Positions 4,094 through 21,514 of a stretch of 64,000 bases of DNA are shown here, in pieces. The translations under genes and the position numbers were made by a program. The stretch is from the IMG/VR virus record IMGVR_UViG_3300029268_000005. One strand, 5' to 3'. This DNA comes from an uncultured virus (IMG/VR IMGVR_UViG_3300029268_000005). Its lineage: Duplodnaviria; Heunggongvirae; Uroviricota; Caudoviricetes. Numbering within the stretch: the stretch's first letter is position 1; every line of letters starts with the position of its first letter. Under the pieces are notes generated by a model. It ran no database searches. It was not told where the DNA came from and saw only the letters and a program-made list of their open reading frames with translations.

Positions 4094-4095
4094 GA

Positions 4096-4677
4096 TTAGG
4101 CCGTGATATCTAACGTCACGCCAGTATGATCACACCAGGCACCTGGTTTCGGATCAATTGGATCGACCGTTAGACTAACATTTAAGCTGCTTAGCTCATA
4201 GGGATCCACGTCAGAATCTTCGTCATACGCCGTGATAGTCCACTCAGCTCCATCTTGAGGGCCTATGGTGAGTGTTACGTCAATGCGCCTTGTACGTGTC
4301 GAAGGTGTATACGATATAGTCACAAAGAAAGACACATAGCCATACTCGTAGTTCTCAGAACCAGGGCAGCCGACTTTTGCCACTTGATCGACACTGTATG
4401 TTGTGTAGCAAGTGCTAGCAGACCCTACGTTGTCGTCGACAAGGTCAACGACGTAGTCGGCATCAAACCTACTGCAGGTAGGCGTTATAGGATCTTCGGA
4501 CGTTCCGCAGTTGTCGATGTTGTTTGTAGAGCCGCTTATACGAAGTGTCAGACTATCCGGGGCGCTCTCATCTGAATATGACTTGCAATCGCCGGGATCT
4601 TCACCACAGCAACAATCCTCGGACATGGCGATCTGTCCATCTACGAACAGTATCGCGCCCTCGTAGAACACAACCAT
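4096..4677 (-). CDS. Cys-containing putative tail-fibre accessory protein
   Basis: Start moved to MVVFYEG (ATG 4677, GGAG upstream); SEDCCCG motif; acidic and beta-rich; follows the collagen gene. Confidence 0.55.
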   Translation of the reverse strand: MVVFYEGAILFVDGQIAMSEDCCCGEDPGDCKSYSDESAPDSLTLRISGSTNNIDNCGTSEDPITPTCSRFDADYVVDLVDDNVGSASTCYTTYSVDQVAKVGCPGSENYEYGYVSFFVTISYTPSTRTRRIDVTLTIGPQDGAEWTITAYDEDSDVDPYELSSLNVSLTVDPIDPKPGAWCDHTGVTLDITA

Positions 4678-4681
4678 GGCA

Positions 4682-5824
4682 TTACTCCGGTGGTTCTGGA
4701 CACTCGGTACCTTCGTGCCATGTTTCTGTTGTTTCTGGCTCTTCGGCAGACGACAATGCCGATACGAAACACTCAAGCTTAGTGAGTGTCAGATCCGTAC
4801 CATCAACTGCAATCTCCGTAACAGCCTCAATCGAGCTTGGCGCCCACGACATGACCTTTCCGTCGTCACTTACAAAGATCGGAGTACCGCTTGCTAGCTT
4901 TGCACCAGAAGGTATTATCCAGCCGTCGACAGTAATGCTGCTTCCGCCAGTTACACTTGCACTGGCAGTTCCACCGCCTGTTAAGTCTTGAGTTAGTGTT
5001 GCGGCAGTTACTGCTTTGAAAGAGTTAGTTCTGAATTCGAAAGAGTTGTGATCGGCAGTCTTCCAATTGCTTAACGCTGTGCCGTTGACCTTATCACCTT
5101 GGGCGTAGCCGGCTTTATTCCAGTCCTCACCAGCACCATCTACAGTGAATCGAACAGTACCTGGAACAGTAGGCACGTAGTGAAAATTGTTGGTCACACC
5201 TGTGCCTGATCCGGTTCCGACCGGGGGGTCACCAGTAGGGACGACGGCTATCGTGATGGGCATAGCCGGAACTACCGATACTTCGACCTCAACAAGATAT
5301 CTAGTGACGTTGTTAGACGTCATGACACCAAGGATCACGCCAATAGCCCACACGTTCATATTTTGAACGCCTAGATTGTTTGCCGAGGGCGCGTGTTTCA
5401 CATAACAATCTAGGACGTCTTGTGTCCAGGTTGATCCGTCGTAATGCGTAAGGTACAACGTGCCATTGTAGTATTCGCCGCCTATAAGCGTTGTGACATG
5501 CACCACAACGGCAGCGCCATTTATACCGACAGCGCCAGAGGCGCCTTGAGCCCCTTGCGGACCGGCGACACCGTTCAGGCCGTTTAAGCCAGGCACGCCC
5601 TGTGAACCTTGCGGGCCGGCTGCACCAGAAACAGCAGCAGCTAGATCCACAGGAGGTATGGCGCTCAGACCGCTGGCGTCGCAGTCAAAGATGGCTTCTG
5701 GCGGATCGGGCAGTTCGCAATTGGTGATATCGGGAATCACCTCGATTGGCTGTACGGCAGGAACCTCACAGTCAGCCGGGTCAAACACGGGATCAAAATT
5801 GTATGGTCCGCCTGTATAGCCCAT
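4682..5824 (-). CDS. Collagen-like (Gly-X-Y) putative tail-fibre protein
   Basis: GAAGPQGSQGVPGLNGLNGVAGPQGAQGASG triplets followed by a Thr/Gly-rich beta region. Confidence 0.7.
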   Translation of the reverse strand: MGYTGGPYNFDPVFDPADCEVPAVQPIEVIPDITNCELPDPPEAIFDCDASGLSAIPPVDLAAAVSGAAGPQGSQGVPGLNGLNGVAGPQGAQGASGAVGINGAAVVVHVTTLIGGEYYNGTLYLTHYDGSTWTQDVLDCYVKHAPSANNLGVQNMNVWAIGVILGVMTSNNVTRYLVEVEVSVVPAMPITIAVVPTGDPPVGTGSGTGVTNNFHYVPTVPGTVRFTVDGAGEDWNKAGYAQGDKVNGTALSNWKTADHNSFEFRTNSFKAVTAATLTQDLTGGGTASASVTGGSSITVDGWIIPSGAKLASGTPIFVSDDGKVMSWAPSSIEAVTEIAVDGTDLTLTKLECFVSALSSAEEPETTETWHEGTECPEPPE

Positions 5825-7623: not shown

Positions 7624-8108
7624 GCAAATCGCAGGCGTTTGCGAATCTGGGCAGACCTAGCGGCCCTGGTAGTGTCCACAACAGCAACCGCAGGCTTGAA
7701 ACACAGCCCGTACCTGGCAGCCCAGACCTCAATGTCTTTGACATTGTCGGCAGTAAGCGGCCCGTGCGGTTTGATGAGCTTGGCAGGATCAGTGGCCAAT
7801 AGAGCCGATATGGACTCAATGCCAGTCTCCCAGACTGCATTACGAGTTGCAGCCGTCACCGTTCGAAGCATATCGTCCCACAGCTTGTTGATGTCGCCCG
7901 GCGGCACAGGCTCACCCGGTTCATCTTCGACATCGTATGCATCCTCTTCCTCAGCCGGCTCATCATCAGCCTCATCAGCCTCTTCGTCCGCAGCAGCTTG
8001 TAGCTCGTTTCGCAACGAGTCTATAGCGTTGGCAGCGGCCTCAGCTTGATCTTCGTCAACGGGCTGTTCAGGATAGCCTTCTTCAAAATCATCTTCTTCA
8101 ATTGGCAT
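7620..8108 (-). CDS. Hypothetical protein with a highly acidic N-terminus
   Basis: 162 aa, D/E-rich first half; GAGG RBS; ATGA overlap with the next gene. Confidence 0.6.
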   Translation of the reverse strand: MPIEEDDFEEGYPEQPVDEDQAEAAANAIDSLRNELQAAADEEADEADDEPAEEEDAYDVEDEPGEPVPPGDINKLWDDMLRTVTAATRNAVWETGIESISALLATDPAKLIKPHGPLTADNVKDIEVWAARYGLCFKPAVAVVDTTRAARSAQIRKRLRFA

Positions 8109-8116
8109 ATGTACCT

Positions 8117-9784
8117 CTACGTGTAAACAAGGTCGCCGCTGTTGGTGAAGACAAATCTGTCAAATATTGTGGTGGCCTTGTAACTCTCTACACCAAAGCG
8201 GCTAAGACTACCGTCCCAGGCTACAGCTGTCGGATCTACGCTACAAAGCAAAGCGCCAGTTCCTGCATTACGCACATAAGCCACCACCCAGCTGTAATTG
8301 GGATCTTCTGAAGGATAGCAGGCAACGACAACTCTGTACAGCGTATCCAGCGCCATCGCGGGCAACGCCGTGAAGTTCAAAACCGATAACTGGCCTTGGC
8401 TACGTACCATCAAAACCAGTCCACGGGTTCCAACATAAAACCCGTCCCAATCCATTGTCACTTGTATCCAGCGATAGTCATCATCGACAGACTGTATGCC
8501 GAATACAACACTGCCGTTGTTTAGCGTGTTGTTGATGTCATTGGTAAGCCGCATGTCCACAACAACTTTGCGGTAATAGGCCGTATCTAGCGGCAGATTC
8601 CTGTAGGCCAGATTACGGACGCTAAGCTGTGTTGCTTGTATCGTGCCGCTTACGACAGAGTAACCTCCTAGCAGCGTTGTCCAGCCCACCAGGGAGGAAA
8701 GGTTATCAACCAAGGGCAGCGCCGGGTCTTCCTCTGTCTCCTCCACCTCTGAGTCAATGACGAAGGGATCTAGCTCTTCTTCATCGATGATAGTGATGGA
8801 CTCGTCGGATATGGACACACACAGGTCTTCGTACTCGTTGGGCAGCGTGCCGTCGTCGGTAGGTAGACGAGCAGCTGTAACACACATGTCGCCAAGCCCT
8901 AGGCCGCAGTCAACAATGACGCCGCACACATCTTCCGTGCTGACAAGTTCGCCATCGTTGTCCAGAAAGGCCTCCCGGTGTACGTCAGTGATAACACCAC
9001 AGCCTGTGAACTCGATGGTAATATTGCCGCTGCAGTCTGGTGTGACGGTGCCAATAGCTTCAACAGGTATCGGATCGCCGCATGTGTTGCTCTCAGGCCT
9101 GTCACCGCACGGACCTTTGTAGATATCAAAGACATTACGCTGCTGGCTGTTGTCGGTATTCTTGAGCCTAATGACAATAGCCTCACGCGTTGCAGGGCTC
9201 TCGCTGTCACATAGATCGCTAGCAACCGGCACATGCCCAGGTATCTCGACACACTCGCGAACTATCTCTATGTCATCGCCGCCTATGAGTTTGACAATAC
9301 CGGTCAAAGCTGTTGATACACCTAGCTTGCCAAACGACTGAATTGGCAAGTCACGGTAGGCTTTGGCAATTCTAGGCAGCAGTTGTGCCTGGCCTACAGA
9401 GGAGCAACGCCATGTACGCAGACCGGACTCTGTTATGTTGTCGCCAAACACTATCCAGCCGCCGACACCGGCAGCCAGTGGTGTGAGCGCATACTGCTTG
9501 TCCTGCATAAACGGACGCAGTATCCGTATAGCAGCCAACGGCACTGGTGTTGAGGGCGCAGTCAGACTATCTACGCCCAGTATCACTGCGCTTACAACAG
9601 AGGCGCCAACGGTTATGCCACTGACATAGGCGTATCTTGCCAACGACCGTGGAAAGCAGATATGCAGATCAGAGATGATATTGGTAGGAATGCTGACGCC
9701 GGCATCGTCCACTAGCGACGCTAGTTCATCAAACGGATAGCACCGTTGCTGATTAAGCGAGTACCATGCCACATTTCTAGACAT
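8117..9784 (-). CDS. Virion protein, YPF paralog family, with a C-terminal lectin/jelly-roll-like domain
   Basis: WYSLNQQRCYPF; TGIVKLIGGDDIEI; TPDCSGNITI; the C-terminal ~200 aa look like a beta-sandwich (FGVES..TIFDRFVF). Confidence 0.6.
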   Translation of the reverse strand: MSRNVAWYSLNQQRCYPFDELASLVDDAGVSIPTNIISDLHICFPRSLARYAYVSGITVGASVVSAVILGVDSLTAPSTPVPLAAIRILRPFMQDKQYALTPLAAGVGGWIVFGDNITESGLRTWRCSSVGQAQLLPRIAKAYRDLPIQSFGKLGVSTALTGIVKLIGGDDIEIVRECVEIPGHVPVASDLCDSESPATREAIVIRLKNTDNSQQRNVFDIYKGPCGDRPESNTCGDPIPVEAIGTVTPDCSGNITIEFTGCGVITDVHREAFLDNDGELVSTEDVCGVIVDCGLGLGDMCVTAARLPTDDGTLPNEYEDLCVSISDESITIIDEEELDPFVIDSEVEETEEDPALPLVDNLSSLVGWTTLLGGYSVVSGTIQATQLSVRNLAYRNLPLDTAYYRKVVVDMRLTNDINNTLNNGSVVFGIQSVDDDYRWIQVTMDWDGFYVGTRGLVLMVRSQGQLSVLNFTALPAMALDTLYRVVVACYPSEDPNYSWVVAYVRNAGTGALLCSVDPTAVAWDGSLSRFGVESYKATTIFDRFVFTNSGDLVYT

Positions 9785-9792
9785 CAGCGCAC

Positions 9793-11301
9793 CTAACCTG
9801 TCAGATAGCCTTGAGCTGTAGCCGGTTCAGTTACAAGCCGATACTGTAGCGATTCTGCACCCGGCCCGACCCCAGGCTGATAGCCAGGAACAAGTGAGCC
9901 ATACGCATTGATGACAGGGTTAGGCACAGCGTAAGCATCTACAGATATGCCAACCGTGGCTGGAAACGAGCCTGCAGCCGGTATAAGACCTAGGTTGATG
10001 TAAGGCATGCTATAGGGATCAACACGAGCTGCCACAAATCTGAAGTACGGCCACGAACCCTCCGGCGTTGCCATAGAATACTGTGACACACGTTCTATGC
10101 TGGCCCAGTCATCACCGTAATCTCCGGCGTACCAGATGTGATAGTCCGTGAGCGCGAAGCTGCAGCCAGACAGATCAATCTCAAACACCAAGTTGCGTAT
10201 GCACTGCTGCGTATTGTTGCAGTAGGCTGCTGATAGCCACGCGTAGTTTGGTTGCTGCAGCTTGATCTCGGCTCGTAGTCGACGGTTATTTCGGCATGAT
10301 AGCTGTGCATTCCAGCGAGCTACGTTAGTTGCATAGATGTCTCGCACTGATTGCGCTCGGGCTACCATGTCTGCATAACGATCACGTAGCTTCCTGATGG
10401 CCTCGTAGCAGGCCAGGAAGTCATCGCACTCGCAACACGGCCCACAGTCGTTGTACAGCTGCAGCGTCGCCCCTCTGATTTCAACTTGCCTAGGGTCAGC
10501 TGAAAGCAGCGTGCGTATAGGCTGCTGCGCACGATAACAAGGATCCAAGTCTATTTTGAAGTTACCTCGTGCATCGCCTTCCGCTGAGTTGAGCTGCCGC
10601 AGGTAAACACTGTCTTCGCTGCAGTCGGCTGGATAACGTCCAGCACCCGCACCGGGTGTTGCGTGCAGCGTCAGTTTATTGCTGACTCGCAACGGCTGTG
10701 AGGCATAGCCAAATTCATTCGGCGGTGTATCAACAAGATCTACGGAGCTGGCTGTTAGGTCCAGCTTAGTGTTGTAGCCGCCACGCAGGACAACATTGCC
10801 AAAGACTGCCGTGCTGCCGATCTTAATGCTTCTGAGATCTGGCAGTACTTCTGAGCAAACACGCTCGTCTAACTGGCCTGTAGTGGGCTCGATGTATTGG
10901 TCATACGTTATGACAGTCTCGTCATCGGCCCACTCAAGGAAGACAACAAGCCTAAGAATGGTCTGACCAAGGCTCCACTGCAAGATACGAAAGCGTGTAC
11001 CCCAGTCGTTACTGCTGAACTCATCAGCTAGCAAGCTATTGAATACAACAACACCATTGGCGTCACTTATCTGGACGTCATACGTGTGCACCGGTGTAAT
11101 GGGCACTGTGACGACCTGATCGCCAAAGCCGTACAGCCAATCGATCTTGAAGGGACGTTGTAACTGATGCCCATCATCACTGTAGGCTAGATAGGCGTCT
11201 GCTATAAGCTGCTTGATATCGGCCGACGGCGCTACAAACGGGTAGTCGCTGCCGCTGAACGGCTGAATAACACCGATGCCCTGTCTGCCGAGTGTTGTCA
11301 T
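9793..11301 (-). CDS. Virion protein, YPF paralog family, with a PCCxC motif and coiled coil
   Basis: SDYPF; GNVVLRGGYN; GDARGNFKI; NDCGPCCECDD followed by a heptad helix. Confidence 0.6.
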   Translation of the reverse strand: MTTLGRQGIGVIQPFSGSDYPFVAPSADIKQLIADAYLAYSDDGHQLQRPFKIDWLYGFGDQVVTVPITPVHTYDVQISDANGVVVFNSLLADEFSSNDWGTRFRILQWSLGQTILRLVVFLEWADDETVITYDQYIEPTTGQLDERVCSEVLPDLRSIKIGSTAVFGNVVLRGGYNTKLDLTASSVDLVDTPPNEFGYASQPLRVSNKLTLHATPGAGAGRYPADCSEDSVYLRQLNSAEGDARGNFKIDLDPCYRAQQPIRTLLSADPRQVEIRGATLQLYNDCGPCCECDDFLACYEAIRKLRDRYADMVARAQSVRDIYATNVARWNAQLSCRNNRRLRAEIKLQQPNYAWLSAAYCNNTQQCIRNLVFEIDLSGCSFALTDYHIWYAGDYGDDWASIERVSQYSMATPEGSWPYFRFVAARVDPYSMPYINLGLIPAAGSFPATVGISVDAYAVPNPVINAYGSLVPGYQPGVGPGAESLQYRLVTEPATAQGYLTG

Positions 11302-11305
11302 ATAG

Positions 11306-12562
11306 CTATATGGTTACTAGGCCTGGTGTACGTCCTGAGAACTTCAGAAGATTGGCACGCACATACGGGATGTTGTTGAGCTCGTGCCATGGAGACGGGA
11401 AGTAGTTGTACTTACGCACCTCTTGGAACTTCACTGGAGTGCCTATGAAGCGTGCCTGCTCGGCATGAGTCCAATACAGAAACGAATTGGCATTCCAGAA
11501 GCTGCAATGTGTCGGATCTTGAAACGCACCACGACCATCCGTGCTCGGTGTATCGCTTAACAACCAGCCGTTGGGCGCTAGACAGCGATAGATCTCTCGC
11601 ATGGTGACCAGTGGATCGCGCAGGTGCTCAAGAGCGTCACTGGCACGGAATACACCAACAGACCCATCAGGGAATGGCCACGGTGCGCAATTAAGGTCAC
11701 GCTGTATGACACCCGGCGCTGGAAGTAGATCGATGCCCGTGAATTGCGCAGCCGGCAAGGGACCACTGCACAGGTCAATAGCTTCCAACGAATTGTCCCG
11801 ACACCAGCGCATAACCAATTCTGGCAGGTAGTGATCGCACATACCTACCGTGCCCTTCTGTATCCAATCATTCAGCTCCAGCCCTGCTGAGCTATTCTCG
11901 TCATGGTGATGCTGTATGTACAGACACTTGTCGATGTGGCGTACGTTACCAGACACGTATGTGCGGCATAGAAGGTCTTGATCATCTAGCGCCGGCAGCA
12001 GCGGATCGTGTCCCATTATCGTGTTGTAAAACGAGCTACGCCAAGCTCTGACATGGTTGGGCGCATACCATATGCGCGAGAAAGACGCAGGCGATGGTGG
12101 AAACGCAACAGCCTCCGCAAGCGCACGGCCTTCCCACTCAAACTGACGATACTGCCAGCCATGCTCGCTAGGGTACAACACAGGGCTGCCATCTTGATTG
12201 ACGTCACACCAGTTCGAATAGACAAAATCGATGCCAGGTTCAAACGCCGCGTACAGCTCTGCCAGTGCATTTGGTGTCAGCTCATCATCGTGGTCGACTT
12301 CAACCAGGAATTCGCCAGAAGCTAGCTTACAGCAGAACTTCTTTAGCGAGCCTATACCTGTGTTTCCTGCCGCGTCAAAATCAATGCACTTTATGTGTTG
12401 ACAACCGCTGGTCGCCAACAAGTTTCGAACATCGATTGCCTTGGCATCTTTGTTAGCAACGACAACCCACTCAAAGTCCTTGAATGTCTGTCGCGACAAG
12501 CTCTGCGCTAATCGCCGAATATTGGCAGGATTATGCGTAGGCGTAAAGATACTGAATCGCAT
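11306..12562 (-). CDS. GT2 glycosyltransferase fused to a class I SAM methyltransferase-like domain
   Basis: FSIFTPTHN, QTFKDFEWVVV, EVDHDD (DxD), DDQDLLCR; C-terminal IDLCSG, WPFPDGSV, LEHL, EIYRCLAPNG, FQDPTH. Confidence 0.88.
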   Translation of the reverse strand: MRFSIFTPTHNPANIRRLAQSLSRQTFKDFEWVVVANKDAKAIDVRNLLATSGCQHIKCIDFDAAGNTGIGSLKKFCCKLASGEFLVEVDHDDELTPNALAELYAAFEPGIDFVYSNWCDVNQDGSPVLYPSEHGWQYRQFEWEGRALAEAVAFPPSPASFSRIWYAPNHVRAWRSSFYNTIMGHDPLLPALDDQDLLCRTYVSGNVRHIDKCLYIQHHHDENSSAGLELNDWIQKGTVGMCDHYLPELVMRWCRDNSLEAIDLCSGPLPAAQFTGIDLLPAPGVIQRDLNCAPWPFPDGSVGVFRASDALEHLRDPLVTMREIYRCLAPNGWLLSDTPSTDGRGAFQDPTHCSFWNANSFLYWTHAEQARFIGTPVKFQEVRKYNYFPSPWHELNNIPYVRANLLKFSGRTPGLVTI

Positions 12563-12589
12563 GATTTAACCCCTCAATGTTGTTGTCGG

Positions 12590-13024
12590 TCAGTCAGGAT
12601 TGACTGATTCTTCCACACCTAGCGCAGCCTCAAGACCTGCGATAGTTGCTTCTGTAGCTGCGATAGCTGCAACGTCAGGCGTTGACGCCGCCTGCAGCTT
12701 AGCAAGAACAGCAGTGTAGTAGCTGTGATAGTAGATTTTGGCAGCAAGCTCGGTCACTGTCTGAAGCATAGCCGCGACAGCAGGAAACTTGATAGCCTCG
12801 GCGAAGATGTCATGAATAAGAACCTTCTTGGTCAGCTCGGAGTCCCAGGCAATTTCCTTGCTGGCAAAGTTATACGGCTGGAACATCAGGGACATCCGCT
12901 GTGTCAGTGGGTCTCGTTTCGACACACTTACAAGCATCGCCGTCAGATACAGCTCGTTGAACGTCTTGCTTTCGACCGCAGGCAGTACAGTCGCTTCGGC
13001 GCTCGGTATCGGCGTTAGGTCCAT
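12590..13024 (-). CDS. Hypothetical protein, possibly a fibre chaperone or rSAM partner
   Basis: Start moved to MDLTPIPS (ATG 13024, GGAG RBS); overlaps the rSAM C-terminal tail. Confidence 0.55.
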   Translation of the reverse strand: MDLTPIPSAEATVLPAVESKTFNELYLTAMLVSVSKRDPLTQRMSLMFQPYNFASKEIAWDSELTKKVLIHDIFAEAIKFPAVAAMLQTVTELAAKIYYHSYYTAVLAKLQAASTPDVAAIAATEATIAGLEAALGVEESVNPD

Positions 13025-14183
13025 TAGTGGCTCCATTCTTGTTTCTAGGCTTACGTTTAGGCACGTCACGATTTGGTCTTGAATCTAGGCTTGCTTGCCA
13101 CCAGTTAGGATTCAACTCACGAAGCTGTAGATCAATCCAATGTACAATCTTAGCCGACTCTTGCTTGAATCGACAGTATACAGGGTTGGGCTTTGACATG
13201 TCGCCCGTAGTCTTATAGTTGATATGATAGCAGCCGGAATCGCAACTACGTACAGCAACGCAGCCGGCACACATGGCTGGGCGTTCTAGGCTTACGACTT
13301 TGTGTAATCCACACTTTGCAATGTTACCATAGCCTCTATCTTTGTAATCGAGTATCTCTCTTAGCGTTCCACGGCAGAACGGCCCATCAGCCGGTTCGCT
13401 GCTAAACCGATGACAAAGATAGACATTGCCTTCGCAAGATACACAAGCCATGTTACGGCCAGCGCCGCAACCCATGCGGTGTATAAAATCATGCTGTTTT
13501 GACTTGAATGTAGCGCAAGCCCTATCAATCCAGAACAGGCGAAAGCCCTTACCGGTCTTTTTGAAGTCCTCTACAAACTCAATGCCCAGCTGCCACAGCT
13601 GTTGACAGAATATCTCTATGTTTTCAGCTGACCAGTCCGGATAGTAGTCGGGCTGTGGCGACATGCCTTTGACAAAGCCCAAGGACTGAAAGTAGTGCAT
13701 AGACTCGATAATGTACTTGGCAGCCTGCGGTGCGATCGTACTGCGACGAGTCTTGCCATAGTCTTTCCACAACAGGGTGGCTTTGTTGTAGCGTTCTAGG
13801 GCTTTGACTCCTCGCCCATCTGCCACGGCAGCAGGACAGCCGTCCACAGACCGCTGCACACTCAGCTTATTACGTTTGCAGTATTCGAAGATCTCTACGT
13901 CGTCAGATAGGCCGTTACTCATAACAGAAAAATGAGTTCCAGCCCCTCTTGATTTCAATGTGTCGACAAGATACTTAAGACTGTCAAACGCCAGCAAAGG
14001 TTCCCCGCCGTACAGCTGCAACTTACCTAGACGACCGCGCATGGTTATCTCGATCACGTCGTCCAACACAGCCTTCGACATGTCTACATTGGTTTTATGC
14101 TGTCCGAGATAGCAATAAGGGCAGTCAAGATTGCATCGCCTGGTGAGCTCGATGTCTAGTGAACGAATGCCGGAAAAACCCAT
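12870..14183 (-). CDS. Radical SAM/SPASM-domain protein (peptide/protein maturase type)
   Basis: CNLDCPYC (CxxxCxxC); YGGEPLL; SVDG; SPASM cysteines CGAG..GNVYLCHRF..CAGCVAVRSCDSGC..C. Confidence 0.92.
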   Translation of the reverse strand: MGFSGIRSLDIELTRRCNLDCPYCYLGQHKTNVDMSKAVLDDVIEITMRGRLGKLQLYGGEPLLAFDSLKYLVDTLKSRGAGTHFSVMSNGLSDDVEIFEYCKRNKLSVQRSVDGCPAAVADGRGVKALERYNKATLLWKDYGKTRRSTIAPQAAKYIIESMHYFQSLGFVKGMSPQPDYYPDWSAENIEIFCQQLWQLGIEFVEDFKKTGKGFRLFWIDRACATFKSKQHDFIHRMGCGAGRNMACVSCEGNVYLCHRFSSEPADGPFCRGTLREILDYKDRGYGNIAKCGLHKVVSLERPAMCAGCVAVRSCDSGCYHINYKTTGDMSKPNPVYCRFKQESAKIVHWIDLQLRELNPNWWQASLDSRPNRDVPKRKPRNKNGATNGPNADTERRSDCTACGRKQDVQRAVSDGDACKCVETRPTDTADVPDVPAV

Positions 14184-14194
14184 AAAACCCCTCC

Positions 14195-14220
14195 AGATTT
14201 AATTAGCGCTAATTACATCT
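14195..14220. promoter_or_regulatory. Palindrome copy 1 (core TAATTAGCGCTAATTA, 14200-14215)
   Basis: AGATTTAATTAGCGCTAATTACATCT, between the collagen/Cys gene stop and the rSAM RBS. Confidence 0.85.
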
Positions 14221-14231
14221 CCGCCGGGTCA

Positions 14232-15941
14232 CTAGTCGTCTGGATCGCAAGTGCACGCAGGATCCCTGCCGCAGCCTTCATCCTCAGGACATGGTATGTC
14301 TGCACAGTCGGGATCACAACCCTCACATGTGCAGTCTACGCAATTAGGCTCACAGCCTGTCTGTTCGCACACGCAATCAGTACAGTTAGGCTCACATTCC
14401 TCGCAATGGCAATCTTCCGGAGATCCGCATTCGTCACCATCGCAGTCACAGTTACAGTCACCAGTACTGCAATTAGGCGAGCAGCTGCCGCCAGATTCAT
14501 TGCTACAATCAGCTGCGGCGCAGTTAGGCCAACAGGCCTCCTCGTGATCGCAGTCAACCGGATCGTCTTCAGGACAGCCATCATCTGTGTCACACTGGCA
14601 CGTAGGGTCAGATCCACAGTGCTGAAATGTTTGAGAGATCTCGGTAACAGAAATGCTTGCACTCCATGAATAGCGTGCAGCAGCCAAACCCTGGCACCAT
14701 ATCGTCAGATACGGCCCTTCTTCAGGAGTTGCTGAAGGATTAACCGGTGAGACAGTTACCTCCATCCCAAGACTTGCAACAGAGCTATCATCGGTGAACA
14801 ATACTTCGTTAGTAGGCGAGCCAACAAGCTCAGCCACACCGTCACTAGCCATCTTAACCACGCCACGCATTTCCCATACGGTTGAGTATCGACTATAGTC
14901 GATAGCACCAGCGTGAATTACAAAAGCCCACAGCTTGTCAGCCGTCATCTGTAGTCTACTACCGTTTAGGGTTATTTCTGTCCAGTTATCATCTTCCGTC
15001 TGTGCATAGCCTACGGCTGTAAAGCGACGCACATACGGACCAATTCCCTGAGCAACTGAGGCAAAAATATCGTTTTTTGTGAATAACCCTGATGTTATCC
15101 CGTACGGTGCAGTGACATTATTGGTATAGCCGGAGACTGCAGCGTAGCGGGCCTCGCCGGCTATACTGTTAGCAAAGCCGCCCAAAACAGCACTGTAATC
15201 GCCTAGGTTTAAGTTGCTGACGCCGCCCAGGATAGCCGCATTTTCACCACTTAAGATATTTGATTGGCCTCCGAGAATTGCAGCACTTGTTCCAGTGTTC
15301 TCGTTATAATATCCGCCCAGCAGTGCCGAATATTCGCCGCGAGCTCTTTGATTGTCGTTACCGCTTAGAAGTTGCAGATCTACTGATCGATGACCTAGAT
15401 TTGTGGTTCCGCCTGTTCTAATGCTGCCTGTGCCGTTGGGGGTTAAGATTATGTCTTTGTTGCCCGTTGTAGTGACAATAGCGTATCCGGCTGTATTCAA
15501 GTTAGCCGTCAACGTGCTTGTCACGCCGCCTTGCGGTCCTTGTGCGCCCTGCGCACCTTGTGCGCCCTGCGCACCTTGTGCGCCGTTATTTCCCTGATTG
15601 CCTTTAAGACCCTGCACACCCTGTGTACCTTGCGTACCTTGGCTGCCCGCAGCCCCGGTAGCGCCCTGGACGCCTTGTGTGCCTGCGCCAGTGGCCCCTT
15701 GAGCCCCTTGGCTGCCTTGAGCGCCCTGTACACCTTGTGTGCCTTGAACACCCTGACTTCCAGCAGCACCACCTGCACCCTGAGCCCCCTGCGGACCTTG
15801 CGTACCTTCGCCACCGCCACCGGACTCTAGTGCGTCAGCAATGGCTATGAAGTTGTCATTCAACGCCGAGCCGGCAGCGCCAGTGGGCGTTGGCGAGACA
15901 ATGAGCAGTCCTTTGTAGTATTGCAGCGTCGGTGTAGACAT
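14232..15941 (-). CDS. Collagen-like tail-fibre/adhesin protein with beta-roll repeats and a C-terminal Cys/Asp/Glu-rich domain
   Basis: About 30 G-X-Q triplets; SA(I/L/V)LGGxxN repeats; the last 128 aa contain 30 Cys and 38 D/E. Confidence 0.8.
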   Translation of the reverse strand: MSTPTLQYYKGLLIVSPTPTGAAGSALNDNFIAIADALESGGGGEGTQGPQGAQGAGGAAGSQGVQGTQGVQGAQGSQGAQGATGAGTQGVQGATGAAGSQGTQGTQGVQGLKGNQGNNGAQGAQGAQGAQGAQGPQGGVTSTLTANLNTAGYAIVTTTGNKDIILTPNGTGSIRTGGTTNLGHRSVDLQLLSGNDNQRARGEYSALLGGYYNENTGTSAAILGGQSNILSGENAAILGGVSNLNLGDYSAVLGGFANSIAGEARYAAVSGYTNNVTAPYGITSGLFTKNDIFASVAQGIGPYVRRFTAVGYAQTEDDNWTEITLNGSRLQMTADKLWAFVIHAGAIDYSRYSTVWEMRGVVKMASDGVAELVGSPTNEVLFTDDSSVASLGMEVTVSPVNPSATPEEGPYLTIWCQGLAAARYSWSASISVTEISQTFQHCGSDPTCQCDTDDGCPEDDPVDCDHEEACWPNCAAADCSNESGGSCSPNCSTGDCNCDCDGDECGSPEDCHCEECEPNCTDCVCEQTGCEPNCVDCTCEGCDPDCADIPCPEDEGCGRDPACTCDPDD

Positions 15942-15962
15942 CTATCAACCTCCGTGTTTAGT

Positions 15963-16202
15963 TCAAGCCAACAACTGACACCGCAAACAAGGCGGGTGCA
16001 CTTTTGCACCACATCCGGGACAACGCACAGGATCTTTGGTCGCATCAGGATAATGAATCATAACCGACGTGTCGTCAATGACAACAACGTCCTCAACTGT
16101 GCCCAATACATCGTAGATGTCAGAGAGGTCACACAACAATTTACGCTGAATACGCACCGGCGTATAGCCTTGAGCACTCAGGTCAACAATTGTGTACGCC
16201 AT
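15963..16202 (-). CDS. Small protein with a C-terminal zinc ribbon
   Basis: Start MAYTIV (AAGGAG RBS); RCPGCG..PCLRC. Confidence 0.6.
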   Translation of the reverse strand: MAYTIVDLSAQGYTPVRIQRKLLCDLSDIYDVLGTVEDVVVIDDTSVMIHYPDATKDPVRCPGCGAKVHPPCLRCQLLA

Positions 16203-16210
16203 CTCCTTAG

Positions 16211-16471
16211 TTAAGCATTTGACGATTGCGCCGGCGGATGGGGCCATGTCTGTGTTTGTCCTCTGTCTGGCGGCGGCGTGCCGTCAATGTATTCTTGTAA
16301 CGTAGGCGACGGTAGTGGAGTTACTAGTGGCTGTGTGTTGAGTCGTGCCGCACCCACTTGTCGTCTAGGCTCAGGATTTATCCACTGCGGCATAAGCCCG
16401 CGACGTTGCATGTAGTGATCCATTGCGGCAACAGACGACAAATCTAATGGAAACTCATGCACGTTGGCCAT
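16211..16471 (-). CDS. Hypothetical Pro-rich protein
   Basis: 86 aa, tightly packed in the operon. Confidence 0.5.
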   Translation of the reverse strand: MANVHEFPLDLSSVAAMDHYMQRRGLMPQWINPEPRRQVGAARLNTQPLVTPLPSPTLQEYIDGTPPPDRGQTQTWPHPPAQSSNA

Positions 16472-16473
16472 TA

Positions 16474-17424
16474 TCAGCTACCTGTTATACAGCCTCTATC
16501 TTGCAGCTTAGATCCAAGTACGACTTGATCCATCTGAGCCACACGAGCTTCCAAACTAACCAAGAAATTCTCTAACGTGGTGGCCTGTCTGCCAAACTGT
16601 TCCATTGCCTGAGTCAACGTCTCTAGTTCACTGCAACCGCAGCAAGGTGTTGAGCACGGGTTTGTCAGCTTGAGACCATTGATCATTGTCTCAACCTGCA
16701 AGCACTCAGAACCTAGCAGTGTTAGTCTACCGTTGGCATCAGGCCTGATACCGTTGACGTTTCTGATCGGCGGCGATAATGCGTTACCAATGCATACGCA
16801 ATCGTCATTCAGGCCTTCACCGTCTATTGCGTCTACAACTATCTCAGGATCTGCACCCTCGGCCTGTACAACAGTGAATCGTATGTTTCTACCGGCGCTC
16901 AACACCACGGTGCCAGTCAGAACTTCACTACGCTCCTGACCATTCTGTACGATCACGCCACTGACACCACGAATACTCGGACGAACACAATCAGGCTCTA
17001 TGATCGTGGCGGTAGGATTGAACGTGAATATGCCAGCAGGCTGCTGCACAATATTAGAAAGATCACCCACAACGATATGGCCTGTGGCGTCATAGAAGTC
17101 ACCTTGGCCTAGTAGTCTGTATGACTGCCCATAGGTGTGTGTCGTAGCCGCAAGCATTGCCGACGCTACAGTGGTTGTGGTCGAGCCGTTGTAGTAACCG
17201 ATGACAATGTTGTAACCTGTCGTAAACGCACCAAGAGTGGATACGTAGAATCCGGCAGGATTTACAGAGACACCGGCATTAAGCGACAGATGCAACGATA
17301 GGAGAAAGTCGTTAGGAATGCTAAACGCACCACTTTGGTCTACACCGGCAGCATCAGCCGTCAACGGATAGCGCCGGCTGGCGTTGTGATTCAACCATTC
17401 AAGATTGCGTAAACCAATGGCCAT
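16474..17424 (-). CDS. Virion protein, WxNxNxxRxYP paralog family, with a PCCxC motif and coiled coil
   Basis: WLNHNASRRYPL; TGTVVLSAGRNI; IRNVNGIRPDANGRL; NPCSTPCCGC followed by heptads. Confidence 0.6.
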   Translation of the reverse strand: MAIGLRNLEWLNHNASRRYPLTADAAGVDQSGAFSIPNDFLLSLHLSLNAGVSVNPAGFYVSTLGAFTTGYNIVIGYYNGSTTTTVASAMLAATTHTYGQSYRLLGQGDFYDATGHIVVGDLSNIVQQPAGIFTFNPTATIIEPDCVRPSIRGVSGVIVQNGQERSEVLTGTVVLSAGRNIRFTVVQAEGADPEIVVDAIDGEGLNDDCVCIGNALSPPIRNVNGIRPDANGRLTLLGSECLQVETMINGLKLTNPCSTPCCGCSELETLTQAMEQFGRQATTLENFLVSLEARVAQMDQVVLGSKLQDRGCITGS

Positions 17425-17432
17425 AAAGCTAC

Positions 17433-19232
17433 CTATTGGGAAATGCTCAGCACACCGGCCTGACGAATCACATGCAGTTCACCGCTGTAGGCATCTGTCG
17501 ATAATCGCTGCAGCGTAAAGAACACGGTGTCGCCAGCCACAACAGAAATTGCAGCAGACTCAGCAGTAAACACCTGATTGGACGAGGCAAGCGTAATGCC
17601 GGCATCAATCGACGACGCTGAGTCAGCCGTTGGCAGCGCAGCAGCAGTGAGCAGGGCGCTGTCCCTAGACAATACACGATATGTGAGACTGAACACATCG
17701 TCTGGAACAGTGCCTGTCGTACGCCCAAGCAATTGAAGCCTGAGCTTGAGTACAGTGCCTTCTGGCAAGGTCTGTTTGGCAGGCACCGATATACGACCAC
17801 GATAGGCAGCTTGTCTTCCGGCAGGGAAGCCAAGACCCATCACCTCTTCGTAGTACTCGTCTGTGACACCATCAAGGCGCACCGTGTCCACCTGCAGCTC
17901 AGTATTCGTCAGATCGTTATCGACGAATATGCTGACCTTACCCTGGACCGATCCATCTTCGTTAGTGACGTCACCAGTTAGAGTCACGTTGTCACTACCA
18001 GCCACGACAGATTCAACCATCGGGCCTTTAATGAACGTGCCGGCATCGGTCAGACCTTTGAGCGCCGTGTAGCCTGCAGTGTCCTCTGTCTGCACTGTCA
18101 GGGCCAGCTGCAGACCTATCACAAGATGGCCAGTTCCAGCCGTATCGTCAGTGCCGGCGCAAGTGATAGTCAGCGGACTACCGTCTTTTACGGTTAGACT
18201 GAGTACCGCCGTCTGCAGACTGTAGAACAGCGGCAAGCTGAACCACAGCGTCATGCTAGATTGCAGCGCACGCGGGCATTCACAGACTTCCGACACACCC
18301 TCACTGATGCTGTCAGGCACTGTAGGCCACGGCACGTCACCAAAGCAGTTGCTCATCCACCATATGCCGTTGCGATCAATGACAACAAGCTCGTCAGCGC
18401 CTGTGGGAACTAGCGTACCGAGTACAGCAAAGTCCTCACCACGATTCCACAGCAGCACAGCGCTTTCGACAGGCAGCGGCGGCCACAGGGCACTGAACGA
18501 TGAGGCTGCGATGTTGTAACCAAACTGCGCACCCAGCGGGGCCAGTCCACCAAAGCTTGGATCATCAGCAGGCAGCCAACCTTCAATGTCCGTGTCTGCG
18601 GTTACAGACCATCGTGAATCAGCAAGCACGCTTTCACCAGCAGGCACACACTGCAGAGAGAACTTATGGTGCTTATGGCCATCCAGCAGTGCACGCGGCA
18701 GAGGGTTAACGTATATCAACCACGTGCTTGTTGTGGCTGACTCCATCACAGTTAGTACGGGCACGCTAACGCCGGGTTCTTGCCGTACAAGCTTGCCGGC
18801 CTGCATAGGCGACAAGTAGTAGTCGCCAGGCACTACCGTATCGTCAATCGCCAGAGACATGTCAACAATGTACATGCCAAACAAAAGAACATCACCGTTC
18901 TCGCTGCTGTTTTTGGTGATGCACACTCCGCGCACCTTGGCAGACTCGGCCAAGCTAAGCACCCCTGTAGCTGCGTCAACCGCCACAGACGCCAATGCCG
19001 GTTCGTAGCGATGGTTGGTTGTGTTGTAGTACACAGGCCGACCAACGGCTACGGCAGACGACATATTTTTGGCTCGATCAATTACGGTGGAGCCTGCTGA
19101 AATCGTGTCTAGCAACGACTTCAGATGGTCTATGTTGCCTTTCAGCTCCAACGTGGGTCGATTTGTAACACCGCCACGTACGGCCTCACCGTCGCGAACC
19201 GTTCTGATTAGCGTCTGATAGCTCATGGGCAT
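17433..19232 (-). CDS. Putative baseplate/fibre structural protein
   Basis: 599 aa, beta-rich; lies between baseplate and fibre genes. Confidence 0.55.
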   Translation of the reverse strand: MPMSYQTLIRTVRDGEAVRGGVTNRPTLELKGNIDHLKSLLDTISAGSTVIDRAKNMSSAVAVGRPVYYNTTNHRYEPALASVAVDAATGVLSLAESAKVRGVCITKNSSENGDVLLFGMYIVDMSLAIDDTVVPGDYYLSPMQAGKLVRQEPGVSVPVLTVMESATTSTWLIYVNPLPRALLDGHKHHKFSLQCVPAGESVLADSRWSVTADTDIEGWLPADDPSFGGLAPLGAQFGYNIAASSFSALWPPLPVESAVLLWNRGEDFAVLGTLVPTGADELVVIDRNGIWWMSNCFGDVPWPTVPDSISEGVSEVCECPRALQSSMTLWFSLPLFYSLQTAVLSLTVKDGSPLTITCAGTDDTAGTGHLVIGLQLALTVQTEDTAGYTALKGLTDAGTFIKGPMVESVVAGSDNVTLTGDVTNEDGSVQGKVSIFVDNDLTNTELQVDTVRLDGVTDEYYEEVMGLGFPAGRQAAYRGRISVPAKQTLPEGTVLKLRLQLLGRTTGTVPDDVFSLTYRVLSRDSALLTAAALPTADSASSIDAGITLASSNQVFTAESAAISVVAGDTVFFTLQRLSTDAYSGELHVIRQAGVLSISQ

Positions 19233-19242
19233 CCGTCCGTGT

Positions 19243-19860
19243 TTAACCGAAGGTTAGCGGCCAGTCTATTCCGATTTGCAGGCTGGGCAACTTGGTCAGT
19301 TGACTAGCAGCCTCGTAGTACCACCGACAATAGATGAGGTCTTGTGAATCGTCGGCGTAGTCAGGTGTGACAACCAATGCACCACCATACACGCGACTCT
19401 GCTGTGTGCTGGAGAACTCCAGACCGTTGATACCAACAGTACCCGTAGTCTGCGCAAAACATGTCAGCTTATTACCGCGCGGGAATATAAGCTCATTGGT
19501 TGACTCTTTGACAGCTGCCACAAGGGGCACGCGCAAATAGTCACGCAGCCCTGACAAGTTGCGATAGTAAGACAGAGCATCGTCTCGATTGACGGTAGGC
19601 GGCGATACTTCAGCGCCGGCGTTATTCTCAAACTCAATGTACATGGCCGAGATGTTGTACGACTTGCCATCAACAGAGCCGCGAAGCAGTTCGCATTGAA
19701 CTGTCGCCCAGTCGTACATTATGTCGTTGTGGTTGAACTTGCCACCAGGAAACCACAAACCTGAAACACGCAGTTGCGGACGGATGTATGTAAAACCGTT
19801 CGCTGAAAATTGTTGCCACAACCGTGCAGCGCCGGCTGCATATGTACCAGGCTTAAGCAT
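19243..19860 (-). CDS. Putative baseplate structural protein
   Basis: 205 aa; AGGAG RBS; gene context. Confidence 0.5.
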   Translation of the reverse strand: MLKPGTYAAGAARLWQQFSANGFTYIRPQLRVSGLWFPGGKFNHNDIMYDWATVQCELLRGSVDGKSYNISAMYIEFENNAGAEVSPPTVNRDDALSYYRNLSGLRDYLRVPLVAAVKESTNELIFPRGNKLTCFAQTTGTVGINGLEFSSTQQSRVYGGALVVTPDYADDSQDLIYCRWYYEAASQLTKLPSLQIGIDWPLTFG

Positions 19861-19870
19861 AAAGGCTCCT

Positions 19871-21514
19871 TCAAGGGCAGTAGCAGTCTATATATCGAAG
19901 TCTTGGTTGTTCGACTATACGCTCAGTGACCACCGTCTCGCCTGTAGGCTCCGCAGCGTAGTAAGTGCTAGCCGATTCTAGTATGTTGCCGGCGGGCGTA
20001 ATTGTGTCGCCTACGCCACTAAGCCTGAACACTAGCAACAAGGAACTAAACGACGGCAGTATGTGTCTAAGCATTCGTAGCAATGCGTAGTCTAGCCTGT
20101 TAGGCCCCAAATAGGCTGTCTTTGCCTGGATCACCAGCGCATGTCGACGTAGAACATTGGCTGCCAAGAATTCAAGAGGATTGACGGTAGCTGGCAGATT
20201 GCCTGCTCTGGGCGGATCCTCTTTGATTGTTCGCGTATCCAGCAAGTCTGCCAAGGTCTGTCCAGCGGCTAATCCACGAGAATGTACCTCGTCCCAGAAC
20301 TTGGCAATGTCCAGTGGCCAGCCACCGACTTCGAATGACACCTTGGCGATGCCTTCAACGTCAGTAACAGTTAGAGGTACGTCGGCATTACGAAACGTTA
20401 TGCCGTCTAGGTAGCCTGGAGCCAGATACTCCTTGCCCAGCGTCACGGCAAATAGCGAGTCAGGCACATTTCCACGATTAAGGTCAATCGCCTGAAAGGC
20501 TTCACCTAGCGTTTGACCTCTGTACAGCACATCGCCAATTGCGACGGTTGCTGTATCGTCGATATGCAGCTTGTAAACGTTGTCAGACGTTATGACGAGC
20601 AGATTGCGTGAGTCTGTGACAACATCCTCAACCACTTCACCGTCCGTCTCTGCTATAGGCACATCGACAACTGCTGACAACAGTTGCCGTATGACGTACT
20701 CGGAGCCGCCGTTGGTCAGCCCATTCCAATAGGCCTGCAGAAACCGTCGATAATTCTCACTAGTGGCTTGGCGAAGACCTAGCTGATACCCAAGGTGATA
20801 CCATGGTAAGTCTCTGTCTTCCACAGGCTGAAACATCCACAGCGTTATCTCTGTGTCTGTTACTTCGCTGCCTGTGTAAACAAGTTCACTGCTGATTCGG
20901 CTGTCATCAAACGGCTGGGTGTAGAAAACCAACTGGCCGTTAGCCGCGTCATATTCGTAATCCAGGCCAGCCACCAGTGTGATGCTAGGCGAGAAAATAC
21001 GATCAGTCAGCAATAGCGGTGCTGCTGTCAGAGCCAGCGGGCATGGGAAGCTGTATGTGTGTCTGTCCAGCAGTTGGCCATAATACTTGATGTTACTTAC
21101 AGCCGGGGAGCCGCCGCCGGATAGTACAAGCTCGTTCCAGTCGTCTTCTGTCAGCTCAAACCAGTCTTCAGGGTTGAACTCAAGCCAGTCCTGCGTGATC
21201 TCAGACGGTATACCGGCATACGTGACATTCTCACCGTACCGCAGAGCGCTTATGGCGGCAGAATTGCACTCAGAGCGGCGTAGCTTGATTTGATACCATC
21301 TGTGACGTTGCCCGAGCGGCAGTGTCTCCCTGGAAAGCGAGTCCTGCAGATGTCGCAGGTTTGCCTGCGTCTGTCTATGCAGAAGCGCCTGGCCTTCTAG
21401 TATGTCCTGTAGAAGGAAGCGGCCAGAATACTGCTCAGACCAGAAAGAGCCCAGATAAGTCAACAGGGCTTCTGGCTGGTCTAGTTCGCCAGCGGGATAG
21501 ATGGTAGGGGCCAT
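19871..21514 (-). CDS. Putative baseplate wedge protein
   Basis: LGSFWS N-terminus; YRRFLQAYWNGLTNGGS..IRQLLSAV (tail-wedge-like); TGGTAGAAT 6 nt upstream of ATG suggests a leaderless transcript. Confidence 0.55.
   Translation of the reverse strand: MAPTIYPAGELDQPEALLTYLGSFWSEQYSGRFLLQDILEGQALLHRQTQANLRHLQDSLSRETLPLGQRHRWYQIKLRRSECNSAAISALRYGENVTYAGIPSEITQDWLEFNPEDWFELTEDDWNELVLSGGGSPAVSNIKYYGQLLDRHTYSFPCPLALTAAPLLLTDRIFSPSITLVAGLDYEYDAANGQLVFYTQPFDDSRISSELVYTGSEVTDTEITLWMFQPVEDRDLPWYHLGYQLGLRQATSENYRRFLQAYWNGLTNGGSEYVIRQLLSAVVDVPIAETDGEVVEDVVTDSRNLLVITSDNVYKLHIDDTATVAIGDVLYRGQTLGEAFQAIDLNRGNVPDSLFAVTLGKEYLAPGYLDGITFRNADVPLTVTDVEGIAKVSFEVGGWPLDIAKFWDEVHSRGLAAGQTLADLLDTRTIKEDPPRAGNLPATVNPLEFLAANVLRRHALVIQAKTAYLGPNRLDYALLRMLRHILPSFSSLLLVFRLSGVGDTITPAGNILESASTYYAAEPTGETVVTERIVEQPRLRYIDCYCP

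Follow-up and report, generated by a model that had tools for sequence, protein, structure and literature searches.

In a 64,000-nt stretch of DNA from an uncultured virus of the Caudoviricetes (IMG/VR record IMGVR_UViG_3300029268_000005; hereafter, the window), the gene for a collagen-like fibre protein with a Cys-rich C-terminal tail is followed by a gene for a radical S-adenosylmethionine (SAM) enzyme of the SPASM type (Table 1). Nearly all long open reading frames (ORFs) of the window lie on the minus strand; the contig in IMG/VR comprises 185 kb, and the record examined here 133,466 bp. An initial annotation of the locus had proposed that the enzyme cross-links the tail, in analogy to the maturation of RiPPs (peptides that are made on ribosomes and modified after translation). 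In related phages, these two genes either co-occur or are both missing, and stapling of the fibre tip by the enzyme, through sulfur-carbon bridges, is therefore likely.

Table 1 Features of the fibre/radical SAM locus (positions refer to the window; aa, amino acids).
Feature	Position	Strand	Evidence
Variable-slot cassette: two small ORFs, fibre, radical SAM/SPASM enzyme, ORF3, glycosyltransferase-methyltransferase fusion	11302..16473	-	tblastn synteny with L244, L245 and L246
Collagen-like fibre protein, 569 aa, predicted substrate	14232..15941	-	ORF; Pfam Collagen E 9.8e-12; PHROG tail-fibre families
Collagen G-x-y repeats, residues 43-138	15528..15815	-	Pfam, NCBIfam and PHROG matches
Beta-roll repeats resembling the UspA1 trimeric adhesin head, ~residues 191-293	15063..15371	-	PDB 3pr7
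C-terminal Cys/Asp/Glu tail, 128 residues, predicted modification site	14235..14618	-	Composition and motif counts
48-nt spacer from fibre stop to radical SAM ATG; GGAGG 7 nt before ATG	14184..14231	-	Sequence read
Radical SAM/SPASM enzyme, 437 aa, without RiPP recognition element	12870..14183	-	Pfam, NCBIfam, alignment, AlphaFold2, Foldseek
ORF3, up to 159 aa, part of cassette	12590..13069	-	ORF list
Glycosyltransferase family 2-SAM-methyltransferase fusion, 418 aa, in cassette	11306..12562	-	Glycos_transf_2 E 3.3e-10; Methyltransf_23 E 1.6e-8

The fibre protein can be divided into four parts, i.e. a short N-terminal segment, collagen repeats, a beta-roll region and the 128-residue tail. Its best match among PHROG tail-fibre families was phrog_6320 (E 2e-24, residues 19-138), and a phmmer search against the PDB aligned the beta-roll region to UspA1 (E 2.5e-6); a weak match of the same region to Pfam LbR_Ice_bind (E 0.0019) fell below the cutoff. 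The tail contains 30 Cys, 24 Asp and 14 Glu together with only one Lys or Arg, and a single further Cys is found in the other 441 residues. Our recount agreed with the initial annotation in every detail checked (128 residues, 30 Cys, 38 Asp/Glu), and all repeats and bracketing ends it had described are present, namely five CxP(N/D)C units (CWPNC, CSPNC, CEPNC twice and CDPDC) versus 0.2 expected from shuffles (z 9.8), between the similar ends CGSDPTCQCD..GCPEDD and CPEDEGCGRDPACTCD. Its caveat that the CX3(D/E) sites may simply reflect composition was justified, since the 12 sites observed, versus 8.7 ± 2.2 expected, were reached or exceeded in 10% of 5000 shuffles. Distant relatives of fibre residues 140-441 had no Cys-rich tail in 22 of 22 cases (at most 3 Cys per 60 aa), and the tail is thus an added module; these relatives were seen without genomic context and say nothing on linkage to the enzyme.

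No terminator-like site was predicted in the spacer between the two genes, and across positions 11000-17000 neither promoter-like (6 versus 5.6 by chance) nor terminator-like sites (8 versus 5.3) were above chance. The enzyme is a member of the radical SAM superfamily according to Pfam Radical_SAM (PF04055; 45.3 bits versus a cutoff of 29.5), and its CX3CX2C motif (C17/C21/C24) is invariant in an alignment of 15 sequences that comprises the window enzyme and 14 homologues of 33-46% identity. SPASM enzymes carry a CX9-15GX4C ... CX2CX5CX3C ... C motif in a C-terminal extension. The seven-Cys pattern of the family, C239-x12-G252-x4-C257 ... C305xxC308x5C314x3C318 ... C337, is likewise invariant in the 15 sequences, and the alignment to CteB extends through residue 451 of 453, which places the enzyme in the SPASM subgroup; the Pfam SPASM model PF13186 gave no report at E ≤ 0.01. 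Positions 5-359 of the family profile align to CteB residues 97-451, i.e. the enzyme begins at the radical SAM core, and because the ~96 N-terminal residues of CteB have no counterpart, the enzyme lacks a RiPP recognition element (RRE). PqqD/RRE-type Pfam matches were also missing from three small neighbouring ORFs. With both Cys sets invariant and a start at the core, these results bear out the complete radical SAM/SPASM gene without an RRE-sized extension that had been noted initially. The conserved part of the enzyme ends near residue 365; residues 370-437 are unconserved, overlap ORF3 and are predicted to be disordered, with pLDDT <50 in an AlphaFold2 model of mean pLDDT 80.8 and pTM 0.77.

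Among curated NCBIfam models, that of the ranthipeptide maturase PapB gave the top score for all 15 family members (best E 2e-53), followed by models for QhpD, nif11-type and SCIFF maturases, and the anaerobic sulfatase maturase model TIGR03942 matched 12/15 members (best E 5.9e-16). The window enzyme itself matched PapB (NF047865) over model positions 2-330 of 330 (133.6 bits, E 9.3e-39). Searching the PDB with the family profile retrieved CteB (E 2.7e-37, 131.8 bits) and, with a lower score, the anaerobic sulfatase-maturating enzyme anSME (E 2.7e-16, 62.7 bits), and Foldseek ranked CteB (5why, E 8e-16) before anSME (4k37, E 3.6e-13) for the enzyme model. In a FastTree phylogeny of 214 radical SAM sequences, which was midpoint-rooted, drawn without support values and used for clade separation alone, the family formed one clade apart from phage enzymes associated with CNCNY and CXXX repeats (see below). 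Megablast of window positions 8000-20000 against GenBank phages gave no match, and tblastn of the enzyme gave matches of at most 36% identity, none spanning 80% of the query. A predicted complex of the enzyme with fibre residues 430-569 scored 0.00 with the partner's own fold uncertain, and counts neither way.

The initial annotation had suggested a survey of gene neighbourhoods of radical SAM homologues, and this survey revealed a Cys-rich tail beside the enzyme in 6/6 viral family loci and the absence of both from 3/3 syntenic relatives. In viral contigs of IMG/VR, the enzyme family is encoded on six contigs including that of the window, the others being 35-45% identical to the window enzyme. 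In each of them, a dense Cys- and acidic/amide-rich domain forms the C-terminus of the protein encoded directly upstream on the same strand, and the gap between the two genes is 31-52 bp in five loci and 590 bp in L006. The proteins carrying these domains are unrelated: besides the collagen/UspA1-like fibre, they comprise an unnamed protein of 441 aa (48 Cys), another of 489 aa (111 Cys), a DUF2341/LamG protein, and two Ser-rich proteins of ~2000 aa with F5/8-type-C domains and gp53-like baseplate wedge N-termini. The six enzymes represent four lineages (L004/L005, 76% identical; L006/L007, 73%; other pairs, 37-46%).

Three syntenic relatives (L244, L245 and L246) have their genes in the same order as the window between the gene for a gp6-like baseplate wedge at 25356-27017 (phrog_6, E 1.9e-18) and position 4682, and according to tblastn synteny the whole 5.2-kb cassette is missing from the corresponding slot. 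Their records, of 224.5, 161 and 202 kb and an estimated 100, 78 and 90% completeness, contained no member of the enzyme family and no acidic Cys-dense ORF; one of them had a weak 24.6-bit generic radical SAM match elsewhere, and the matches of the Cys scan were Arg-/Pro-rich stretches (Cys-dense in G003), apparently out-of-frame in high-GC DNA. The 133-kb record of the window phage holds a single radical SAM gene and a single Cys-dense domain. Although the number of lineages is small, comparative genomics thus supports the pairing of enzyme and substrate well. Among the matches listed in metagenome and genome contigs, no close bacterial relative of the enzyme was seen (at most 28% identity over long matches) and the new family loci were duplicates of L004 and L007 alone; these scans spanned 11/64 and 15/64 parts, respectively, and do not thereby establish a restriction of the family to phages.

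The tail had no family or sequence match in Pfam, NCBIfam or the PDB (the latter at E ≤ 1), a search of proteins of 312-996 aa gave no homologue, and the six tails, of 74 to 408 residues, were therefore compared by motif statistics alone, with expected counts derived from shuffled tails. One spacing, Cys-x-x-(D/E/N), was enriched in all six: 21 observed versus 10.2 expected in the window (z 4.8), where it covers 21 of the 30 Cys, and 34/13.4, 99/33.1, 57/18.3, 17/9.5 and 17/8.3 in L003 to L007, respectively. Among ten offsets from i-4 to i+6 relative to Cys, occupancy by D/E/N/Q was highest at i+3 in 5/6 tails, with a tie with i-1 in L006, and reached 61-94% at this position compared to a background of 30-41%. 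In contrast, C-x-x-x-(D/E/N) was enriched in none of the six (window, 12 versus 10.0 expected, z 0.9), and CX3(D/E) was rejected as a shared motif. Hence, the earlier view of the tail as a radical SAM/SPASM substrate gained from the linkage and from the kinship of the enzyme to thioether maturases, while its CX3(D/E) motif was replaced by a conserved CX2(D/E/N) spacing.

Other spacings behaved differently. CC and CxxC were depleted in 5/6 tails (z -3.4 to -7.6), and CxxC was weakly low in the window tail (4 versus 6.7, z -1.3). CxP(N/D)C was enriched in the window, L004 and L005, occurred once in L003 and was absent from L006 and L007; (D/E/N)-x-x-C was enriched in L004 (81 versus 32.8) and L005 (40 versus 18.2) and not in the other four tails, including that of the window (14 versus 10.1, z 1.7). 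The repeat units themselves differ between tails (CxPNC, CxCDxEC, CxCNxDC and CGCECPEE).

The reading that we favour, with moderate confidence, is leaderless thioether stapling of the fibre tip at Cys-x-x-(D/E/N), of which we infer the chemistry, the location in the virion and the purpose. The enzyme would cleave SAM to generate a 5'-deoxyadenosyl radical, remove a hydrogen from the side chain of the acceptor and connect the side-chain carbon to the Cys sulfur, thereby installing many intramolecular, ranthionine-type thioether bridges in the 128-residue tail. Each link would likely run from Cys to the side chain of the Asp, Glu or Asn three residues on and cost 2 Da, at up to ~21 sites. Without an RRE or a leader, the enzyme would have to bind its substrate directly, through either the repeated motif or the fold of the fibre, and its basic, disordered C-terminal tail might aid docking on the acidic substrate. 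The expected product is a trimeric virion fibre whose distal tip is stapled and reduction-proof, formed in the cytoplasm before lysis, and fibre and maturase would move between phages as one unit. Whether this amounts to a portable phage module, i.e. a fibre or adhesin with a Cys-x-x-(D/E/N) ladder plus a leaderless SPASM stapler that laces the host-facing fibre end with up to dozens of thioethers, and hence to a new class of virion modification, is in our judgement about evenly balanced.

Several points weigh against this reading. Cross-links are not observable from sequence, the position of the acceptor is a statistical argument, and internal repeats inflate the z-scores within each tail; these are therefore optimistic, and we place more weight on the recurrence of the same offset across tails with different units. 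The enzyme stays below every curated NCBIfam cutoff (PapB, 133.6/340 bits; QhpD, 69.5/453; SCIFF, 67.6/425; TIGR04463, 41.6/525), so that these enzymes form a family of their own, and it lacks the RRE through which PapB, CteB, QhpD and CrpC interact with a leader. An eighth invariant Cys of the family, C270, is absent from CteB. In anSME, auxiliary cluster I is fully ligated, and C270 could provide full ligation of this cluster in the window family as well. Moreover, the overall architecture is anSME-like (~370 aa, no RRE, protein substrate), with a fold match nearly as good (TM 0.61-0.72). The assignment to the virion comes from domain types and gene neighbourhood, and most genes neighbouring the fibre/radical SAM pair have no PHROG match. 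The co-occurrence itself is based on four independent enzyme lineages plus three relatives, in a count that excludes 11 family members (P0002, P0004-P0010, P0012, P0014 and P0015). Finally, the i+3 residue is mostly Asn in L004 and L005, whereas for PapB a restriction to carboxylate acceptors is reported (PMC12373016).

The same enzyme-substrate pair could be linked by another chemistry, such as an anSME-like conversion of Cys to formylglycine, sactionine links to alpha-carbons, or acceptors besides i+3. The absence of an RRE, the ~370 conserved residues, a protein substrate, the eight invariant Cys in the C-terminal half and the Foldseek match to anSME (target-normalised TM 0.72 for 4k37) would suit an anSME-like enzyme, whereas the sequence scores clearly favour thioether maturases, both for the family profile (CteB over anSME) and for PapB as best model in 15/15 members. 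Sulfatase maturation takes place at C-x-P-x-R (C/S-x-P/A-x-R) motifs. The CxP(N/D)C units recall this motif, but the window tail has no C-x-P-x-R because it contains only one Lys or Arg, and such units are not a general property of the six tails, being absent from two of them and found once in L003. Similarly, the enrichment of (D/E/N)-x-x-C in L004 and L005 would fit an upstream acceptor of the NxxC type, but does not extend to the other four tails. In addition, a Cys-rich protein with C-x-x-D sites has been shown experimentally to carry ranthionine (PMC13692751). Given C270 and the near-equal fold match to anSME, we rate an anSME-like or other chemistry as unlikely, yet as the alternative to be taken most seriously.

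It is considerably less probable that the tail is no substrate at all but binds metal or becomes disulfide-bonded after lysis, with the radical SAM enzyme acting elsewhere, for instance on a different protein of the phage or on a target in the host. Metal binding is frequent among Cys- and acid-rich sequences and was also considered for modified CrpA by its authors (PMC13692751), and the modification of the tail is so far deduced rather than observed. However, this explanation leaves the 6/6 pairing on unrelated carriers and the joint absence in 3/3 relatives unaccounted for; the CC and CxxC spacings typical of metal or redox sites are depleted in 5/6 tails and weakly low (CxxC) in the window, and the genome record offers neither a second Cys-dense candidate nor a second radical SAM enzyme. 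We consider it very improbable that the tail represents the core of a giant RiPP precursor, with the fibre body as leader, that is modified and then cleaved off to act as a separate Cys-rich peptide (toxin, signal or exclusion factor). RiPP core peptides are indeed C-terminal and the enzyme family has RiPP maturases among its relatives, but Pfam, NCBIfam and PHROG revealed no recognisable protease or exporter gene in the cassette, the tails sit on large proteins of adhesin or fibre type in structural modules (collagen, UspA1-like, LamG, F5/8-type-C, gp53-like), and tails of 74 to 408 residues are far longer than known RiPP cores.

The flanks of the slot, 16474-17424 and 9793-11301, are conserved and lie next to each other in L245 (9979/10001), while in L244 and L246 the slot is occupied by different genes. 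The upstream flank (16474-17424) and the gene beyond the downstream flank (8117-9784) share the N-terminal motif N..W..N....RYP...D..G..IP.D....LH and cross-match with 27.9% identity in L244 by tblastn, and are likely paralogous structural proteins bordering the slot. Within the cassette, ORF3 had no family in Pfam, NCBIfam or PHROG, and in the Atlas only unnamed viral look-alikes (TM ~0.5). The radical SAM ORF overlaps it by 200 nt (12870-13069) in another frame; ORF3 may begin at a later Met, the Atlas entry starting at MDLTP..., and the ends of both genes are provisional. In L004, the Cys-rich gene has sugar-nucleotide genes upstream of it (3783-5724), and glycosylation or methylation of the fibre is possible. 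Outside the window, the same record encodes a 481-aa ORF (G000:C1:112462-113904) with 26 Cys in CxxC-type, zinc-ribbon-like spacings, unlike the fibre tail.

Beyond this family, Cys-dense ORFs (at least 12 Cys in 60 aa) within 3 kb and on the same strand were found near any relative of the enzyme in 42/80 viral, 11/80 metagenome and 1/80 bacterial/archaeal genome loci sampled; the samples include near-duplicates, and the count starts at ORFs of 60 aa, which leaves out short RiPP precursors. CNCN(Y/F) ladders (phrog_26958) or CXXX ladders make up most of the partners and lie beside other radical SAM clades. In many of the loci L008-L068, CxCNCN(Y/F) ladders end proteins of 150-400 aa near distant radical SAM enzymes (22-27% identity), for example at L029:8763-9914, L044:10666-13263 and L068:5259-6302, with 3-4 tandem paralogues in L043 and L044; D/E/N/Q occupies i+1 and i+3 of ~65% of their Cys. 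CXXX ladders (CQxxCExxC...) directly downstream of other phage radical SAM genes were seen at L025:9163-10683, L010:9137-10270 and L014:5843-6958. The carrier in L025 matches the Hoc-like head decoration family phrog_10993 (E 9.5e-85), and capsid decoration proteins may thus be targets besides fibres. The sole bacterial/archaeal locus with a Cys-dense partner, L208:2961-6989 from a Vicinamibacteria metagenome-assembled genome, encodes a 1343-aa protein with a CXXX ladder that ends 12 bp before the radical SAM gene. In a stretch of Phage Phass-1 (OQ749652.1) without annotated gene, a frame of 78 codons whose Cys-rich end has 8 Cys within 40 aa (L282:6426-6659) lies ~290 bp downstream of the radical SAM gene, and Campylobacter phage CP220, which encodes a distant radical SAM enzyme (21% identity), had no Cys-dense ORF within 5 kb. 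The window pair thus forms one branch of a wider and apparently unpublished phage theme, with sister ladders of the CNCNY and CXXX types beside other radical SAM clades in about half of the sampled phage radical SAM loci.

Radical SAM enzymes are known to form thioether staples in small peptides (sacti- and ranthipeptides) and in the cellular protein QhpC. If the proposed stapling is correct, RiPP chemistry has been recruited to build a virus particle, and phages bring their own maturase to obtain a rigid, reduction-proof, Cys-laced fibre tip in a reducing cytoplasm. Fibre and enzyme would then constitute a swappable host-range cassette, and such phages would depend on the iron-sulfur and SAM supply of the host, probably under low oxygen. 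An enzyme family acting on a folded protein without leader or RRE would also be useful for stapling of proteins and peptides. In the literature searched, we found no description of radical SAM thioether stapling of a virus particle, and a full-text search, with most subscription journals outside its coverage, returned no paper in which a structural protein of a phage is connected with a radical SAM maturase. In one cyanophage paper, a gene of this kind is classed under 'antibiotic synthesis' (PMC12801897). CrpA (2026) represents the second cellular protein case after QhpC.

Among known systems, anSME (PDB 4k36-4k39) is comparable in size to the window enzyme and likewise a radical SAM/SPASM enzyme without an RRE; its direct substrate is a protein, modified at a short Cys motif. 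However, it converts Cys or Ser to formylglycine at one site, its sequence similarity to the window enzyme is far weaker than that of the thioether maturases, TIGR03942 was outside the best 25 families for the window enzyme, and the tail contains no sulfatase-type motif. CteB (PDB 5wgg, 5why) is the closest solved structure by profile and predicted fold and has the same SPASM Cys pattern, but carries ~96 extra N-terminal residues (the RRE), lacks C270 and makes one link in the 6-Cys peptide CteA; correspondingly, the match to the SCIFF maturase family TIGR03974, well short of its cutoff, starts only at model position 96 of 451. QhpD resembles the proposed enzyme as a radical SAM/SPASM protein that cross-links Cys to Asp/Glu within a protein subunit, QhpC. 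It differs by an N-terminal extension and by placing three links in a small enzyme subunit rather than dozens in a fibre tail, and the window enzyme aligns, far below the cutoff, to positions 93-459 of 467 of its model TIGR03906.

In NxxcB/NxxcA, a Cys-Asn beta-thioether is formed in NxxC, the acceptor Asn being three residues upstream of Cys. The CXXX-repeat system TIGR04115 did not fit the window pair (51.8 bits versus 350; C-x-x-x-C in the tail, 6 versus 6.7 expected), and where other phage loci have CXXX-type tails, D/E/N/Q is found at i+1, not i+3. PapB and its substrate PapA (freyrasin) share with the proposed system repeated thioethers from Cys to Asp/Glu side chains, and PapB is the top model for all family members. 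PapB needs an acceptor C-terminal to Cys and tolerates positions i+1 to i+7, its RRE docks on a leader, and its natural substrate is a short peptide with CX3D motifs (PMC12373016). In contrast, the window enzyme misses the PapB cutoff, has no RRE and adjoins a 569-aa fibre, and while PapB is reportedly limited to carboxylates, Asn acceptors are likely in some relatives of the window enzyme.

In its way of working, the closest match is CrpC of Methanococcus voltae, a SPASM radical SAM enzyme that, according to a 2026 report, introduces ranthionine links into the 28.8-kDa Cys-rich protein CrpA (PMC13692751). CrpC belongs to TIGR04463, which the window enzyme matches over residues 11-119 only; its RRE engages a leader-like N-terminus, it is archaeal and not viral, and CrpA is no fibre. 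The word 'phage' has no occurrence in the text and three supplementary files of the same paper. As in the window, the SPASM enzyme adjoins the gene for a protein-sized substrate with C-terminal Cys-rich repeats. The CrpA repeats follow C-X-X-Q/D, i.e. a C-x-x-acid/amide spacing with the acceptor C-terminal to Cys, and ranthionine links were mapped by mass spectrometry to CAVD, PCAGD, ACAGM and CPLVL. The gene arrangement, the protein-sized substrate and the C-x-x-acid/amide spacing have a counterpart in the window, where the substrate candidate comprises 569 aa, 21/30 Cys have D/E/N at i+3 and 48 nt separate the two genes. On present comparison, CrpC/CrpA is thus the closest system in its way of working, built on a different enzyme family.

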